From the NCBI GenBank assembly GCA_963514005.1, contig OY740781.1, forward strand, positions 125,550,001 to 125,614,000: a stretch of DNA of 64,000 nt, in the 5' to 3' direction. Each line of letters starts with the position of its first letter. Positions within the stretch are counted from its first letter, which is position 1. This stretch comes from Raja brachyura. Taxonomy: Eukaryota. The position numbers and the translations under genes are program-made. Below the pieces are notes generated by a model. That model saw only the letters and a program-made list of their open reading frames with translations. It ran no database searches and was not told the origin of the DNA. Shown one piece after another: positions 1-26,203 of the stretch.

Positions 1-1731
1 AACGGTAAATGTAAAATGTACAATATTAGTTTTTCAAGCAGGTTAGAATTGGGCAGGTTCAGTATAAGGACCAAGATTGTCTTGCAACACTGGTTCAGAA
101 ATCGGGCCACAGTTGCTGATTAAGGTAGTTACCAAGTAGCTCAAACTTCATCTCGAGTTTGGAGATGGAACAGACTTGCAAAAAAACATTAAAATTCTGT
201 TATTAGTATCAACTATCTATAGACTCTATGGGCATTGTATGGGTTATAGAATGATTGGACAAATAAGCATATTGTCATGTTCAGGTTGATGCATTGTGAT
301 GATGGCATATGTTAGTCACGAGGGTACAATCAGTTAAAGACCGCTGGAATGGTTACAGTTTAACAAACTGCCCTAAGATTTGGGTTGTTGCATCTATCCT
401 TCTATGTGTTCAAAGTGTTCGCATAGCACCAAACCGCTGAATTTTCTTTTCCAGGAGATGAAAGAGTTTGTTATGCTTATGTTCCATGGAAAATGGTATT
501 GATTGCTAATGTTTCGAGTTCATGCTAAATGATCGTCTGTTAATTATGGAGTTATGTGGCCATTAATTGGGTCAATGAGCTTCCTCATTGAGTTGGCTGC
601 AGCAAACAAGACTCGCTCTGTCGGGTCCACACCAGTTATCAAGGGGTAGGATATCTTCAAGGACCAGTATAATGCCATATGCGATGTTGACATTTGTGAA
701 CCCTATTTCACCAGGAGGCTGCAGCTATATCCTTAAATTTGGCTGGAGTTTATTAGGTAGTTATCCTTCTGGCACTGGTTTAGTGCAGCAGGTTCAGTCG
801 CTAAATAATTGTGATGGTACAGGATGATAATGTCTGTAAATTATAATATATTATAAATACTTGAGCAGACCAGAAGGGGGTCTCAAAATAGCCACAGGCA
901 TACCAGGGGACCATTGATAAGGTAAGCAACAATATGTCAAGAGCCTTGGAGTTCTGGACTCCAAAGAATTTCACAAAGAATTTGGGAGAACTTATTTTTC
1001 AGGCCATTCCAAATGAGAAAAAGGGAGTTGTGTTATGTACTAATGGATTCTGTTTCCAGATCTCATTCCACCAGGGCTGCTACAACATCAGCAGCAAGGG
1101 TATTTATGTTCCGCTGGGTCGCATTGTTACGGCTGGAGCATGGTCCATCGAACGAATCTCCAAACATCTGTAATGACCCATTGCTGAACCCGGAGTATTT
1201 GTTGACTCTATTTATGTTCTGGTTATATTTTCCATCAGGGTGAGAGAAGGAAATATTATTGTTTCATTTAAACAGCATCAGCATGTTTTGCATCTATGTT
1301 ATGACTGTATGCATTATGAATGTTTTCCCTTCATTTGTCAATGAAGCAGCTGTGGTTGTGTTTACTCGTTTCACATGGCATGAAGTCACAGAGCTTTGAA
1401 GTCTTCACGTAGTCACTCACGTGACTCCTAAGTAAAATAGTAAGATTAAACGAGAACTGACCAGTTTGAAGTTTGATCTTTATTTTATGAGGAGCGGAGT
1501 TGAGGGACTACATGCCCTCCGCTCCCAGCCCTCATAGATTTCATCTGGTAGTTCTAGGCTTTGTTATCTTACCATTATACTTCAGTCACTATTAGCTGTG
1601 GTTTCACACCGTTGCTTTGAAGATTGACGCACAAACGGCTGTAGGGGTTCTTCACGTAGCCCCTCAACTCGACTCCTCATAAAATAAAGATCAAACTTCA
1701 AACTGGTAAGTTCTCGTTTAATCTTACTATT
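1..1731 (+). mobile_element. Decayed DIRS-type element, 3' portion (5' end not found in window)
   Basis: YR remnant SHSTRAATTSAA (~1062-1097) and RNaseH-like remnant (~285-335). ICR at 1402-1513; 1436-1513 is inverted-complementary to 1653-1731; ends ...CTTACTATT. Termini nearly match the 20381-25161 element. Confidence 0.85.
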
Positions 1732-1984
1732 ATATCTAGTATTGTGCAAGAAGCTTTGAGTGCCCATACTGAGACTGCAAAGAGAGGTGAGAGACAAACT
1801 CCATGTTAACTTGATTGCTTCTAATACAAAAATACAAATGAATAATGCCTTTGCATTGTGTGGGCAGGAGGTGCTCCATTCTAATCTATTAGCATAATTG
1901 TTTTTTTAATGTACAGATACAGTAGGGTGAAAATGAATACACTAAGGCACAAAATTGAGGTCAGCACAGTGGCACAGCTGGTAG

Positions 1985-18071: not shown

Positions 18072-20607
18072 GAAAAGCTTTGATTTGCATGCTATTTAAA
18101 CAGATCAGATGCACTATATATAAATATAATCGTCAACATCAATTACAATAGATAGAGTGAAGGGGAAGATACAGAGTGCAGAATATAGTTCTCAGCATCA
18201 TAGTACACCAGTTCATAGAGTCATTGAACCATACAGCACAGAAACGGATCCTTCGGCCCGACTCGTAGACCCTTGGCCTCCTGCACTCCAAATAATAAAA
18301 TCCTAGCTTTCTCTTCTATCGCAATAGCTCAGATTTTTTTGGCCTTGGCAACATCTTCATAAATCACCTATGCACTCATTCCAGACCACTCTTTGGACTT
18401 TAGACGAAGTCCAATGTCCACAGTGGGGTAGAGATGAATCAGACAGCACTCCCTGGTAGGAGTATGTGGTGGTGTTTGGTAGCAGCAAGTCATGAGATTT
18501 GGGCATGGGGCACAGGCGTCTGCAGAATAGGATATGGAAAGGAGACTGGGGGCGAGGCAGGCCAGGATGGTGCACCACTTGGGCTTTCTGGTGAAGGGCT
18601 GATGAATGAAGCTATTGATTTACCTGGCAACTGCCTCAATCCAGTGCTGTACCAGGAAGACCAGGTTTCCCAGAGATAGCCCAGCAATGGTCAACAATAT
18701 GGTAGTCGTCTGCCCGCAATATTCCAAAAGAGCATTCAAAAGTGCTATGAGCACCTGAGGTAGAACTTGGGTGGGGGTGGAAAGGTTGCTCAAGCTTCAC
18801 TGCAAAAACAAATTTCTCCACTTTTTTTTCCTAACGTTGTGGCAATGGAGTGAATGAAATCACAATGAGCTTCACCCACTATTCAGTGTGAATGGTCCAT
18901 GTAACCGATCTGTATTTTTATTTAACATTCCTGCTGGACCTTGTTTTGCCAGTGAAATGGATAGTTGTGAGAGTTTCAGAAATAATTTTTATTCAACCAT
19001 GCATATTCTAGCCTTCTTGTATGAATAATGTAGGAACAGCTGTAATAGCGTGCAAGAGGGTGAACAATAAATCGCACAGCCAAGGGGAATTTCAGTTTGC
19101 TTCCATAAAATAGATTTAAAGTATAAACGGTTTGGTTTATGAAGCTGGTAAAGTGCATAGTAAAATAAATTGCGAGGGAAAGATTATTGCCCAATTTTGC
19201 ATAGTTGCTGTTATAACAAATCAATGACATCCTAGCTTCCCTGACTGAGATTATATTCAAATCAAATAATTATTTGAAGGTAATTGTTTACATTAATTTT
19301 ATTCTTTAAGAAAATAATTGTTCAAGGAATTATGTGTGAGGGTTCATTTTGTATCAAAGCTATATATGCTGTTTAAGGAGTGAGATGGCTCGAAGAGTGG
19401 GTAGAATGGCTGCACCCAACATGGGGGGAAAAATGACTTCCTGTTTTAAAGTCTGATGAGGAGATGCATCTGCAATACATTGAAGAAAAGGTAAGCAACT
19501 TTGAAAAGCCAGAGAAGGGGTAATCGTTGGCTGCAAGGCCCCAGAGATAGAAATGGCTGGATGTGAGGAGGATCTCTTTTATATAAAAAAGCTTGCTTTG
19601 GAGAGGGATTCTGTCCAGAGGAAATCAACAAATTATCAACACATCCAATCAGATAAAGCAGAGTAGGGTGCAAAATCATAGGGCAGAATATGGATGTCCA
19701 AAACGCACAATACTCAATGATTGCCCTTTCAGATTTCACATTGAAACCACAGATCAAAAGGTAGAGAGATAAGATGAGCTATGGAAACTATGTGGACATT
19801 TTCAAGAATACTTTGGTAATGCTCACTTGGCTGTCTTTGAATTAAGCAGAGGACAGACACAAAACTCTGAAGTAACTCAGCGGGTCTGGCAGCATCGCTG
19901 GAGAAAAGGAATGGGTGACCTTTCAGGTGGGATCCTTCTAGCAGGTCAGATCAGGGTGTTATTTTAAACATGATCAAAAAAAAAAATGTCAAAGACTGTC
20001 AAACAATTTAATCATTGGTCATCACTGAAAACAGGGAAATATAATAGTCTTTGACTATCAAAGCTGTTCAAGAAAACTAAAGACAAGAGACTAACTGAGG
20101 TGTCAGTGTCTGCAGTTTTATTATTCTGATCAATCTGTACATTACCACAGCATAATGTAATCATTAATGTGCAATAAGTTCACCACAGTCCTAACACCTG
20201 CTAGATTTTAATGAGTCCTATTGAGTGCACAATTCATAATTTCCTTTTATGCCATTAGTCAACTACAGAGTCCAACAAACTGATCAAGAATGAGCACACA
20301 TATTAGTGTATTAAAGGTTGTATATTTCACTTAATATCTATCATGCACAAATTATTTTCAGTTGTTTAATTAGCCAGTTTAATAGTAAGATTAAACAAGA
20401 ACTTACCAGTTTGAAGTTTGATCTTTATTTTATGAGGAGTTACGATGAGGGATTACGTGAAGACCCCGCCAGCACGCATGCGCGACATTCTTCAAAGCAG
20501 TGGTGTGAAATCACAGAACAAACAGTCACAATGACTAATATAGTAAGATAAAAAAAGAGAACTTCCATACCAGGTGATCTTTATAATAGAGGGTTGGGAG
20601 CGGAGGG

Positions 20608-20720
20608 CACGTAATCCCTCATCGTAACTCCTCATAAAATAAAGATCAAACTTCAAACTGGTAAGTTCTTGTTTAATCTTACTATTTTACTTCGGAGTCA
20701 CGTGAGTGACTACGTGAAGA
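20608..20720. repeat. DIRS internal complementary region (ICR)
   Basis: 20608-20686 is the exact reverse complement of 20381-20459 (79 bp); 20684-20720 is the exact reverse complement of 25125-25161 (37 bp); the two parts overlap by ATT. Confidence 0.95.
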
Positions 20721-20872
20721 TTTCAAAGCTCTGTGATTTCATGCCGTGGAAGCTCCATGCTCACACACCGCTAAAGTTGGGATAAGAGGATGAACGTAAT
20801 TCAGACAAGACACTGGCTGAAAAACAAAAACAGGTATTTATTCATACCAAACAATATAGTCCCAAAAGGGTA

Positions 20873-21856
20873 CTATCTGGCAGTACTTAAAATCCTCCCT
20901 GCAAAAGTATCAGGGGAGGTCACGGGTTTAAAGTAAAAGCGGTGGAAGGTCTTTTCGTTCCTCCAACCCGCTGTGGCCAGGATGTGATCCAAAGGTACTT
21001 CCATCCTTCTAGCCGCCGAGGTGGATGCTGCCCTGGTGGAGTGAGATTTATAAATGTTAGTATCCACCCCCGCCGCATCCAATACCACCCTTAACCATCT
21101 GGAAATGGTTTGCACCGTGACTCTATGATGGGGTTTCTTGTGACTGATGAGCAATGCTGTCTCCGTGCCCCTTAGATTTTTAGTAACTGAGATGTATCGT
21201 GAGATTAATGAAACGATACAAAGGCGAGAATCTGTTGGGTAAGCCAGAAACTCTAATGTATGACCAGACACTCCGGGACGATCTTGTTTCAATAGTCCCT
21301 GCACATAAAAAGTGACTTTATCACTGGTGGAGGTCATTGCATCCAAATTGAGTTTGTGCAGGGACTGGAGCCGTTGTGCCGTGATAAGTGCCATAATCAT
21401 GACCATTTTGTACGTGAGTTTTGCCAAAGGGAGTCCCGTGATAGGCGTCCATCCTCGTAGCATAGTCAAAACTGTGCTGATATCCCAAGTATGGCTGTAT
21501 CTAGGCCTGGGGGGATTGGAATTGAATATTCCCCTCATAAATTTGGACACTAGGGGATGTGATCCAATGCCCAATTGGTCACTTCCCTGGCCCAGGTAGG
21601 ATGATAGGGCACTCCTGGCACAGTTGATGGCACTGTAACTCAAACCCTCATCGAAATGAAGGGTAGCCAAAAATTCCAGCACTTCCGTAATAGTGGCGGT
21701 TTCATAAGTGGTGTTGGCTGAGACGCAGAATCCTTCCCATTTTCTGATGTAGGTCAGATACTGCTTCCTTGTGGACTCTCTGCAGGCTGCTGTGATGGTG
21801 TCAATGGTCCTGTTGGAGAGTCCGTATCCGTGAAGTGGCCGTTTTAGAATCTGCAA
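20873..21856 (-). CDS. Tyrosine recombinase of the DIRS element (no 5' ATG in frame)
   Basis: N-terminal core-binding region (STRKQY..W..FC, YSAINCARSALS) and catalytic R (TAQR), K (LKQDR), HxxR (SHSTR), W (AGW), Y (FHRFY); uninterrupted. Confidence 0.93.
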   Translation of the reverse strand: MQILKRPLHGYGLSNRTIDTITAACRESTRKQYLTYIRKWEGFCVSANTTYETATITEVLEFLATLHFDEGLSYSAINCARSALSSYLGQGSDQLGIGSHPLVSKFMRGIFNSNPPRPRYSHTWDISTVLTMLRGWTPITGLPLAKLTYKMVMIMALITAQRLQSLHKLNLDAMTSTSDKVTFYVQGLLKQDRPGVSGHTLEFLAYPTDSRLCIVSLISRYISVTKNLRGTETALLISHKKPHHRVTVQTISRWLRVVLDAAGVDTNIYKSHSTRAASTSAARRMEVPLDHILATAGWRNEKTFHRFYFKPVTSPDTFAGRILSTAR

Positions 21857-23778
21857 ATCAATAGATCCATGCGATCATGACATGGGTGATGTTCCCCTGT
21901 AACAGGGTGAATGAGCAGACTTGGTCTTTTGTTCACCCTGATGCAGGGTTCTGTGGCCATCTTCCGTACCATAGGGAACCATGGTTGGGTAGGCCAGTCG
22001 GGCACCACCAAAATTCCCGATGCGGAGTCTTGCTTAATTTTCTGCAAGACCCGACTGATGAGGCAGAAAGGGGGAAATGCATAGCAAAATAGATCTCCCC
22101 AATGTAGCGAGAATGCATCCATCGCTACTGCCCCCGGGTCTGGTTCCCAAGCAACATATGTTGGTAGTTGGTGATTAAGCCTGGACGCGAAAAGGTCGAT
22201 ATCTGGTGTTCCATACCGTTCTACAATATCTGTAAACACACTCCGATCCAACATCCATTCTATGTTGTCGTTGAATTTACGTGATCTGGTGTCTGCCACT
22301 GTGTTTAGCTTCCCTGGAAGGTAAGTAGCTGATATCCAGATTTCTCTTTGCAGACACCAGTGCCAGATATTGTTTGCCAATTCATCACATGATATCGACT
22401 TAATACCGCCCATGTGGTTAATATAGGCTACCACCGTGGTGTTGTCAATTTGTATCCTTATATGGACTTTGTGCATATTAGTGCAGTATGCTTTAAGGCC
22501 GTGAAATGCTGCCAGCATTTCCGAATAGTTAATCCCCAAATTTTTGAAATGGGTTAACTCCTGTGCACTCCATCTACCTCCACAACTAGAGGTAGTGTTA
22601 GTAGCTCCCCACCCTTTGGCACTGGCATCTGTTTGTAAGGTGACCGAGGGATTGATGATAGTGATTGGTTTAGAGCAGTTTTGGGCATTGCCCATCCACC
22701 AATATAATTCGGCTTTTGCCTTCTCCGGTATTGTCATGGGCCTATCAAAATGGCCAGCATGATTTTTGAGCGCTGTAATTTTTGCTCTTTGTAAGTTTTG
22801 GTAATGTAAAGGCCCAAATTGTGCTCCAGGGAATGCAGCTACTATCTTTCCAATCACCCTGTCCACCTGTCAAATGGATGGATCCTTAGTGCCAAAGAGG
22901 CTCCTGCAAGCCTCTATCAGGTCCTCCACCTTGCTTGGTGGCAACGTGATAGACATTTGCCCAGAGTCAATGATGAACCCCAAGTACTTCATGGTAGTAG
23001 AGGGTTCCAATATAGATTTATCTGGATGTATAATGAAACCCAGCTTCTGAAAAAGCTGTTTAGTGGCTGTTACCGCCAAAGTGGCCGTTTCCAAATTTTC
23101 CCCCACAATGAGGATGTCGTCTAGATAAGCCATAACAGTATGGTTCTGTTTCCTTAAACAGGCCAAAGCTGGTTTCAATATCTTGGTAAACAATCTGGGT
23201 GCTGATGATAACCCATTGGGCAAGGCTTTGTATTGCCATAATTGTCCCATCCAGATAAATTTTAAGTATTTCCTATGATCCTTGTGAATGGGTACTGAAT
23301 AATATGCATCCTTAAGATCAATGCATGCCTTGTAGTACCCATGACCTATTAACTGTATAGCAGTGTCGAAGGTGTCCATTTTGAAATGAATATACTGGAC
23401 AGAAGTATTCAGTTCAGTTAAGTCAATAATGATGCGGCAACCGCCGTCTTTTTTATTTTTGGTGAATATATTGGACACGAACTCCCGGGGTTCTTTGGTG
23501 GCTTTCTCCACTACTCCTTTCTTTATTAACCTAAGAAGCTCAGCATGTCCTGCTGCCTTCTCTTGTTGAGAAAGGATAAATTTCCGGCTAGGGACATGCT
23601 GAACCGGAGTAGGGAGTTCGTGAATAAATTCAATTTCGTAGCCCTGAATACTCCTGAGTATATAAGGATCAGAGGTAACAGTGAGCCAATTCTCGTAGAA
23701 CAAGTGCAACCTGCCCCCCACATACAGTGAATTTAGACAAGATGTGTTTCTGGGGACTCCAGACCCACCTACCTCCAT
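21844..23778 (-). pseudogene. DIRS pol: RT + RNase H + N6-adenine-methyltransferase-like domain, one in-frame TGA at 22870-22872
   Basis: RT IDLKDAY, LPNGLSSAP, YLDD; RH TDAS..GWG, E, IDNTT, NTVAD; MT-like DIDLFASRLN, DAF, YAFPPF. ORFs 22870-23856 and 21844-22866 are in the same frame (PSI*QVDRVIG). ATG at 23778 in ACCATGG context. Confidence 0.92.
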
Positions 23779-23780
23779 GG

Positions 23781-24989
23781 TTACTGCCGGTGTTGAGGTC
23801 TCTGCCCTTGCTTCCTTGGCTGGTTGGGGGTGTTCTGGGAGTGGCGCATCTTCCAAGAAGGCCGGCCTGGGCCATGGCCTAAAAAAGACCTTTGTGCAGG
23901 ATTGCCGGCCTTCGAGCTTTCACCACCTGCAGACCTGGAATGGTAACTCTGCCTGGTGGATGTGTAGGGGTGCTGTCTTTGCGGGTAGTGGGGTTTAGGG
24001 AAGCCAGGTATCTTTATAAGGCCCAAAGCCTTTGCCTCCTCATCCAGGTCTTTAACCTGCTTAGGGAGATCTTCCCCGAACAGCAGGCTAGGAGGCTGAG
24101 TCTTCCCAGGCTTACACAACCCCGCAAACTTGGGGTTAAGCGCCGGCTTTATGATGCTTTTTCTAAAGTTGTTAATCTCGTACTGAGTGCTACACAGCCG
24201 AGCCAATGCATCTTGTAATTCCTCCGGCATATCCACACCCACTGCAGTTCTTGCCACTGCCGTAATTCCCGCGGTTAGGAGCTTCAGGATCCTCTGAAGT
24301 TTTATCTCCTGTCCTCTGCTCGATGGGCTCATATTCCCCCATATAGGGTTGTTTACTGCAGGGACATTCAATGAACTGCAGTTTGCTGGTGCCATGTATT
24401 TATCTGCCGTAGCATTTATGGCCTGTTCCTGCAGCTGGTTTGTTGCCATATAGTTAATACTGGCAGCCAGTTTGGGGTGGATGGGTAAGCCCTTCTGTTC
24501 GGGCATGGCATGCTTGTTCACCACATCCATATAGCCTTCACACACCCCTGACACAGTCGGTGATTCAGCCAGCTCCCCTTCTTCTGGGTCAGCCCAGTTC
24601 TGACCCTCAATGCTCCCCTGTATAGAGGGGGAGACATTAGGCAGTCCCCGGTAGGAACCTGCCGTGGGCCTGCTAGTAGGCCTACTGTGATCCTGCCCCT
24701 GCATTAGCAGGTCACGTTGGAGCAGCTGCTCCATCATCCGCTCCATGCGGGCAAGACGACCTCCGTCGCTGTCCGCGAAAGGGGTGTCCTCGGGACCGGA
24801 CTCCGCTGAGTCGGCCCCGGCCGACTTCCGGGTGGTTTTCCCGCCCGACCGTGGCGTACCAACGGTCCCAAAGGGCGAAAAGTCGGGAGCTGCAGGCAGA
24901 ACCTGTAGCTCTGGAGAGGCGGCTCTCTGCTGGCTGCTATCCTTTGCAGCTGTTTTTGCCGCGGCTCTTTTTGATTTTCTTGCTTCCAT
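23781..24989 (-). CDS. DIRS gag-like ORF1 (402 aa)
   Basis: Open ATG-started ORF in ORF1 position; conserved-type block EINNFRKSIIKPALN...LC...LLFGEDL; basic low-complexity termini. Confidence 0.88.
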   Translation of the reverse strand: MEARKSKRAAAKTAAKDSSQQRAASPELQVLPAAPDFSPFGTVGTPRSGGKTTRKSAGADSAESGPEDTPFADSDGGRLARMERMMEQLLQRDLLMQGQDHSRPTSRPTAGSYRGLPNVSPSIQGSIEGQNWADPEEGELAESPTVSGVCEGYMDVVNKHAMPEQKGLPIHPKLAASINYMATNQLQEQAINATADKYMAPANCSSLNVPAVNNPIWGNMSPSSRGQEIKLQRILKLLTAGITAVARTAVGVDMPEELQDALARLCSTQYEINNFRKSIIKPALNPKFAGLCKPGKTQPPSLLFGEDLPKQVKDLDEEAKALGLIKIPGFPKPHYPQRQHPYTSTRQSYHSRSAGGESSKAGNPAQRSFLGHGPGRPSWKMRHSQNTPNQPRKQGQRPQHRQ

Positions 24990-25448
24990 CGCTGTCGTCG
25001 ACTCACTCCTCCGGTGAGACTTACCTGGCGCAAGCTATTTAACTTGTGCTGGAGGAGCCCCGCTCCTCCCGACCGTCGCTTCCGCATGCGTACGACGATA
25101 TGTCGCGCATGCGTGCTGGCGGGGTCTTCACGTAGTCACTCACGTGACTCCGAAGTAAAATTATTATTGATGCACAAAGTGTTAGGTTTGATATTATGTA
25201 GTCAGCTTTGAAACTTAACAGAAAGTTCCTAGACTACTCTAGCTTCCTAAAATCAAGTTGAAGATTGAAAATTCCTCTTAAATCAAGATGAGAGCAAATG
25301 TATTCAAGCAAATTTAAACACAATCATGAAAAAGGAAGAATTCAACTGTTCATTCTTATAGGAACCACATTGACTATCTTCAATCTGAGCATGTTGACAT
25401 TTGTTTACCATTTTTCCCCCTCAATCTTCCATTGTGCAAGAACCTTTA

Positions 25449-26203
25449 TGGGCCTGTCACACTTGGGCGACTGCAGGGGATTATGCAGTCGCCACATGTT
25501 TGCGGGTGGTTGCTAGGGAGTCGCCTTCATGGTCGTGAGGAGTTCCCGCATTCTGGGAACTAGTCGCTGCCTCATTATGGTCGCAGCAAATTTTTCAACA
25601 TGTTGACAAATTAGTGGCGACTAGAATGAAGCAGTCATGGAGAGTAGCGAGAATTCTCGTGCCGTAGGTGCATCGCCAGGAGGTCCTAGTGGGTTGCCAG
25701 GAGGTTGAAGGTTCTCTTAGGTTCTCATGGGTTGTATCCGGTGCTGACCGGTGAATTTCATTGGGGAAAAAAAAGTAGTTTTCAGAACAAAGGATAAGCA
25801 ACCGGTAACGTTAATGTCCGACGAGCTTCACAGGTGTGTATCTCTGGCTTCTGAAAAGCTCTCTCTCCCCCCCTTCTTCCCCCTCTCTCCCCCCTCTCCA
25901 CAACCCCTTTTAAAGGACTTACTGTACACTGCTTTTTAGCTTAATTACAGCACCAATCTTCCTGTTCATCGTGGTATGTGTCAGTATCACATTGGATTTG
26001 CACCATTTGAATTTCACTCGGACAGCGCTTCCCCCTCTTGTCCTGTCCCCGCCTGCATAACGGACTGGTGAAGGAAGTGATGTGTTCTTGTGTGTGTGTT
26101 GCACTCTGACAGTTGCTGTTCCAGTTGCCGGTTTTTCAGGCGACTGCCAGCAACTTGAGTCGCCGGCAGTTGCCTGAAAAATAGTCAAAGTTGGACAGGC
26201 CCA
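25449..26203. mobile_element. PIF/Harbinger-type MITE
   Basis: TIRs TGGGCCTGTC..ACTT; 3-bp TTA TSD (25446-48, 26204-06). Confidence 0.85.

Follow-up and report, generated by a model that had tools for sequence, protein, structure and literature searches.

How is a tyrosine recombinase (YR) expressed when its reading frame has no start codon of its own? The question is raised by a DIRS1-like retrotransposon in a 64,000-nucleotide (nt) stretch of the Raja brachyura genome (GenBank GCA_963514005.1, contig OY740781.1, positions 125,550,001 to 125,614,000; hereafter the window, whose numbering is used throughout). The window holds a full-length element on the minus strand (25161-20376), comprising a left inverted terminal repeat (ITR), a gag-like open reading frame (ORF), pol, YR, an internal complementary region (ICR) and a right ITR (Table 1). 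The first in-frame YR methionine is codon 105, beyond the SAM-like N-terminal domain (codons 21-85), and since a start at Met105 would drop this domain, the YR needs another entry route. An initial annotation had also noted the lack of an early ATG, and proposed that gag and pol are removed together as an intron, as for retroviral env. In the searchable literature, the expression of the start-less third ORF behind pol in DIRS elements is unexplained.

The element is a young DIRS1-like retrotransposon. It carries a YR ORF in place of a DDE integrase, together with ITRs, an ICR and a right extension and no split direct repeats, and its 31 scored full-length copies were 99-100% identical. The YR matched PF13495 (aa 21-85, E 3e-6) and PF00589 (aa 144-306, E 1.1e-5, under the curated cut-off), and its catalytic-type columns R160, H270, R273 and Y306 were invariant or near-invariant in the alignment. 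Pol matched RVT_1 (E 2e-21), with weak RNase H-like and Dam matches (E 0.002-0.08, under cut-offs). A premature stop at 22872-22870 breaks pol of the window copy; pol was open in 24 of 30 aligned copies. The nearest named proteins are from a skate (54-57%), and YR candidates in the 2.7 Gb genome number tens of thousands; a single-protein scan of metagenome contigs and an alignment scan of viral contigs returned no relatives. The accessible text of three papers on DIRS1-like elements (Piednoel, 2011, PMC3266345; Gazolla, 2021, PMC9210276; Malicki, 2020, PMC7192593) likewise describes gag-like, reverse transcriptase (RT)-RNase H-methyltransferase and YR ORFs, ITRs, an ICR, a right extension and an ATT-type trinucleotide at both ends, as well as ORF overlaps. 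Splicing or introns of DIRS elements are not mentioned in the accessible text of the first two, that of the third mentions marker introns only, and a YR expression route is not given.

The route that we consider probable is a splice removing pol (23773/23772 to 21851/21850), combined with a predicted −1 slip that joins Gag to YR. One promoter would give two RNAs, unspliced and spliced. The unspliced RNA, which would double as genome, would be translated into Gag and, by a −1 slip at 23886-23880, into Gag-Pol, and the spliced RNA, with pol out and gag kept, would yield Gag plus a Gag-transframe-YR protein by the identical slip. This fusion would comprise 370 + 36 + 325 = 731 codons, and reinitiation at 23778 may add free YR in the window element. 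Such a splice-plus-frameshift design gives exact coordinates for YR expression.

The splice signals were compared across 40 diverged loci of the same genome (~65-89% nucleotide identity) and 80 metagenome loci (YR identity 38-54%), of which 110 with usable YR starts were clustered into 42 families at 75%. Splice scores came from approximate matrices rather than from MaxEntScan. For the donor, the best GT in the 120 nt upstream of the pol GGRL motif was taken, blind to any expected site, in the 20 of 42 clusters with intact spacing and an alignable pol start. This GT was in phase 0 of the pol frame for 18 of 20 families, against a background of 117 of 299 windows (p 3e-6). Its score reached at least 4 in 17 of 20 (vs. 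2.3% of the 299 downstream windows), and the valine codon at the phase-0 donor was GTA or GTG in 17 of 18. Many invertebrate-type elements had their best donor at the gag/pol border, and the three held-out loci that could be scored all had phase-0 donors (5.4, 2.9, and 0.8). In the window this donor is GAG/GTAGGT at 23773/23772 (donor 2), correctly located by the initial annotation as a second donor; it ranked third of 209 GT sites in the element and is conserved across families.

For the acceptor, the best AG within 300 nt was taken in those clusters whose YR was intact (36 of 42). This AG was in phase 0 and lay inside the open YR frame for 27 of the 36; the frame opened exactly at the AG in 10, and no Met stood upstream of the YR core in 15. 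In short-overlap elements, including those of the own genome, the YR frame was closed 5-23 codons upstream and the AG lay at a pol Cys-Arg beside the YR core, and each of 10 own-genome loci had an AGR codon for this Arg (vs. 65 of 128 in the background), these loci not being independent of one another. In long-overlap elements the AG followed pyrimidine-rich FPPF codons 201-216 nt upstream, and the Ser after pol FPPF was AGY in 18 of 22 families vs. 104 of 464 background Ser codons. The proposed splice would also explain the long pol/YR overlaps, as the YR frame opens at the acceptor. In the window, the AG at 21852-51, the TGA at 21877-75 and the 1922-nt distance from donor 2 were as first annotated, with no other AG back to 21898. 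Both ends of the putative GT-AG pol intron are conserved and in phase. The proposal that YR is reached by splicing to 21851/21850 is likely, and the conservation anticipated for it was found for donor 2 and the acceptor; for the upstream donor favored at first (donor 1) the position was kept mainly in the own genome, and its leader was not conserved.

At the end of gag, the initial annotation had overlooked the heptamer TTTTTTA (23886-23880), which lies in the gag frame and from which the −1 (pol) frame stays open over the 36 codons up to donor 2. With its X XXY YYZ pattern and open −1 frame it is a predicted frameshift site. Retroviral gag-pol uses −1 frameshifting, at a site of the type U UUU UUA in HIV-1, and the window element shares this heptamer class and its phase at the gag end. 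TTTTTTA or AAAAAAC in gag phase with pol open was present in 15 of 20 families (15 of the 16 such heptamers were in that phase), and a heptamer of the same class and phase in all 19 alignable parents of the sister family described below. Folding downstream of the heptamer, where a stimulatory structure would be expected 5-9 nt away, was on average better than in shuffled sequences, with a mean z of −1.15 over 20 rows, three of them from one clade, with 10 of 20 below −1 and pseudoknots outside the model. Ribosomal frameshifting at this site is what we infer from these features. As a separate observation, gag and pol formed one frame of 1053-1078 codons in own-genome loci L204, L205 and L210; donor 2 of L204 was strong and in phase, so splicing there would give Gag-YR without a frameshift.

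Genomic copies that lack pol bear on the splice directly. In a sister family about 69% like that of the window, at least 102 pol-less copies were joined exactly at the homologous GT..AG sites. A degenerate donor-2/acceptor junction motif retrieved two pol-less copies (reversed control 0), and a second pol-less lineage had 100 copies at ≤1 mismatch, beside 642 unspliced acceptor matches in the same clade; with a junction-spanning query, 40 of 40 scored matches were continuous. Of 20 unspliced parents fetched, 19 could be aligned, and these had the GT in 18 cases and the AG and the in-phase heptamer in 19, with an intron of mostly ~1.9 kb. The two-copy pair was 97% like an unspliced parent and ~85% like the other pol-less lineage, and the gag-side tree rejected a single origin (approximately unbiased test, p-AU 7e-5), which suggests that the pol-less copies probably had two origins. 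We infer that they arose from spliced RNA and that the window family is spliced likewise.

The large pol-less lineage (L220-L247, L290-L297) is non-autonomous and has a shortened slippery T-run. Among 28 copies examined, gag continued directly in the YR frame in 15 and was out of frame in 13, and one copy had a 734-codon open frame resembling gag and YR, not pol. A younger branch was out of frame and degenerating and had spread nonetheless. Since pol-less copies carry the ICR, early polyadenylation at 20842 was rejected as a general bar to spliced retrocopies. One of the 80 metagenome loci, L128, had both termini and a gag with TTTTTTA; pol was missing, and the transframe continued in frame into YR. 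L128 turned 99.9% identical to its unspliced sibling L130 at a pyrimidine-tract CAG/G, 3-5 nt past the L128 gag stop. Loci L153, L113 and L131 were discarded as spliced copies, their rearrangements mismatching the predicted sites.

These copies could also be read without regulated splicing, as microhomology deletions, with YR reached by a frameshift from pol or by a start at a near-cognate TTG, which lies two codons ahead of the acceptor. Such a frameshift has been suggested for Ngaro elements, in which, according to Poulter and Butler (2015) as quoted in PMC13003380, the YR ORF overlaps the pol end in the −1 frame without a start of its own; the window element shares this overlap and differs in having splice signals and no heptamer there. 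Many relatives have a Met 2-3 codons ahead of the YR core, and the pol-less joins contain a 4-nt AGGT microhomology. However, a conserved frameshift signal in the pol/YR overlap, named by the initial annotation as a competing possibility, was not found: the window overlap has no −1 heptamer, and such a heptamer was present in just 8 of 36 families. In elements whose YR frame is closed by the TAG of the acceptor itself, a slip further upstream would run straight into this stop; the conserved phase-0 donor would be left unexplained; and eight other deletions in seven parents were scattered, none having GT..AG ends as aligned. We therefore regard a route without splicing as very unlikely. A search for longer proteins gave nine matches, in which the five long ones and annotated isoforms proved to be YR frames with a long overlap or joins of the pol and YR frames, with no Gag-YR splice product among them; P0123 showed no likeness to gag.

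A different start on the same spliced RNA was the second model of the initial annotation, in which YR is translated from the ATG at 23778, two bases after the gag stop, as an unfused ME-YR protein (327 aa). The TAA-CC-ATG spacing and strong context fit reinitiation. All 30 family copies and all 30 pol-less junctions examined had an ATG at −6 of donor 2, as did 16 of 19 sister parents. This ATG is common in the own genome but missing in most invertebrate-type families and in the L191-type family of the own genome, so the short ME leader did not prove general; three of the 19 sister parents had ACG instead, and the heptamer and open transframe are maintained alongside. We consider this start unlikely as the explanation, and reinitiation could coexist with frameshifting.

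Retroviral env mRNAs are spliced from a donor upstream of gag, with gag-pol removed. The initial annotation transferred this arrangement to the DIRS element: donor 1 (CAG/GTAAGT, 25025/25024), which ends a 63-nt leader of 21 codons (MRKRRSGGAGLLQHKLNSLRQ) starting at an ATG at 25087, would be spliced to the YR acceptor with loss of gag and pol (3174 nt; gag ATG at 24989), leaving the MRKRR leader as start. All of these positions and lengths were correct, donor 1 was the top donor of the element (first of 209 GT sites), and, of the 31 own-genome loci whose 5' end could be recognised, 27 kept it (element nt 116-139). Among these 27, a phase-0 leader was open from nt 52-75 in eight, namely seven from nt 52-53 and one, the window family, from the ATG at nt 75; 12 had phase 1 or 2 leaders only, and seven had none. 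The leader ATG is thus private to the window family, and RKRR was dropped as a nuclear localization signal on this ground. A donor scoring ≥5 ahead of gag was rare among invertebrate-type families with a visible 5' end (2 of 14). Donor-1-to-YR junction motifs had 0 matches in a genome search, donor 1 was kept unspliced in the two pol-less copies with a visible 5' end (2 of 2), and gag was retained in the conserved arrangement; a gag-less RNA might escape packaging, which makes missing fossils weak evidence.

Donor 1 also has closer candidate partners. A gag-internal acceptor that the initial annotation had overlooked (24619-18) ranked first of 320 AG sites and was found in 72-89% families, not in 60-67% families; several families had a pyrimidine tract and an AG 53-58 nt past donor 1, a candidate intron of the 5' untranslated region. 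The phase-0 leaders coincided with a strong phase-0 acceptor within gag (L067-L080), which accounts for them equally well. Splicing from donor 1 to the gag-internal acceptor is predicted to yield a shortened Gag. An env-type subgenomic mRNA is accordingly not supported as the route to YR and appears the least probable of those weighed here; a minor donor-1 isoform is possible. The pol splice favored here shares with env a spliced subgenomic RNA that would reach the 3' ORF, but its donor lies downstream of gag, pol alone would be removed, and the 3' enzyme would be Gag-fused.

Several observations weigh against the pol splice with a −1 slip. For the window element the splice case was built from genomic DNA, with no RNA read seen, and a search for a pol-less copy of the window's own family gave 0 matches vs. 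247 exact unspliced acceptor matches. The 30 best window-family copies kept the leader ATG in 29 cases and the donor 1 GT, donor 2 and acceptor AG in 30, and as they are 99% identical this conservation is uninformative on selection; the shared ancestry of the families means that the p-values exaggerate independence. The window acceptor is weak, as the initial annotation had cautioned (20th of 320 AG sites), the best AG within 300 nt in this element being a different, out-of-phase site, and the letters of the acceptor double as codons for conserved pol residues; the Ser codon class of the long-overlap elements is inherited. Two further held-out loci were misfits or could not be scored for a donor. 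As to the slip, the region downstream of the window heptamer was no better than shuffles (z +1.5 and −0.3), the canonical heptamer was missing in 5 of 20 families and in 3 of 3 scorable held-out loci, gag and pol share one frame in at least one family of the own genome, and most sister parents keep the ATG that stands 6 nt ahead of donor 2, which allows a start without a frameshift. As to the pol-less copies, the YR-side tree was compatible with a single origin (p-AU 0.96), the AGGT microhomology means that a DNA-level deletion or template switch could yield the same letters, and the donor GT of L128 was unseen because L130 is short. Neither predicted junction was among the 15 joints listed of 64, from four contig runs of uncertain kind, which carries no weight either way.

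Extended to animal DIRS1-like elements in general, the pol splice leads to a broader reading towards which we lean with some reserve: one frameshift and one optional intron would act as a switch between Gag-Pol and Gag-recombinase, both loaded into particles via Gag. Spliced RNA would have been retrotransposed and have founded pol-less families, one of which would have swapped the frameshift for a Gag-YR gene in a single frame and reached 100 copies, perhaps in the role of a helper giving recombinase in trans. In Ty1/Copia elements, the accessible text of Oberlin (2017; PMC5580714) reports conserved alternative splicing that sets protein ratios through a spliced subgenomic gag RNA; there, splicing and early termination give Gag alone, whereas the DIRS splice would swap the enzymes behind Gag. 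The pol-splice route is undescribed in the accessible parts of the DIRS literature searched, which included PMC9341512, PMC4495291, PMC3783388 and PMC6681497, and a mention in the main reviews is possible; the predicted Gag-recombinase fusion was without precedent in the papers found. The pol-less families provide evidence at the DNA level, open to checking in any assembly with no need for RNA, and they alter how DIRS ORFs are best annotated.

Table 1. Features of the DIRS1-like element in window coordinates.
Feature	Position	Strand	Remarks
Left ITR	25100..25161	-	Complementary to ICR (first 37 nt) and right ITR
21-codon leader of the initial annotation	25025..25087	-	ATG private to window family; weak context, C at −3
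Donor 1, CAG/GTAAGT	25019..25027	-	Position conserved across own-genome families, 27/31 loci
gag-like ORF, 402 aa	23781..24989	-	No Pfam match; ATG 24989
Strong acceptor-like site in gag, gag phase 0	24618..24637	-	Candidate partner of donor 1
−1 slippery heptamer T TTT TTA, gag frame	23880..23886	-	Same class and phase in 15/20 families
Transframe segment, 36 codons, pol frame	23773..23880	-	Spans gag stop 23783-81 and ATG 23778
Donor 2, GAG/GTAGGT, pol phase 0	23767..23775	-	Conserved across families
Putative 1922-nt intron, nearly all pol (RT, RNase H, methyltransferase-like)	21851..23772	-	Homologous 1.9-kb GT..AG segment missing from pol-less copies
Acceptor TTTGCAG, possible branch-point A 21875	21851..21877	-	Overlaps final pol codons
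Tyrosine recombinase exon, 325 codons	20873..21850	-	PF13495 and PF00589 matches
AATAAA, 30 nt past YR stop	20837..20842	-	Possible early polyadenylation signal
ICR	20608..20720	-	Inverted-repeat comparison (I1, I3)
Right ITR and right extension	20376..20488	-	Inverted-repeat comparison (I1, I2)

A few minor observations concern the ends and surroundings of the element. In contig runs X2 and X4, 3 and 6 contigs have a joint leading from one element end back to the other (window 25162 and 20380), as expected of a circle junction or of head-to-tail copies. DIRS-like YR loci (L211-L215) were also encountered in records titled as bacterial metagenome-assembled genomes, where eukaryotic contamination probably accounts for the short contigs; L215, located in a contig of 705 kb, had no pol match. 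Two imperfect palindromes (I5 and I6, at 25567-25634 and 26125-26188) lie upstream of and outside the element. At window 1374-1734, the plus strand carries the 3' end alone, with ICR and right ITR, of a diverged DIRS copy; this fragment and the main element are 83% alike. Within the right extension, a strong donor-like site (second of 209 GT sites) is found at 20400-20409. Its complement lies in the ICR, around 20660-20666 on the minus strand, and the site recurs in this diverged fragment; a U1-binding role near the 3' end would be a guess.

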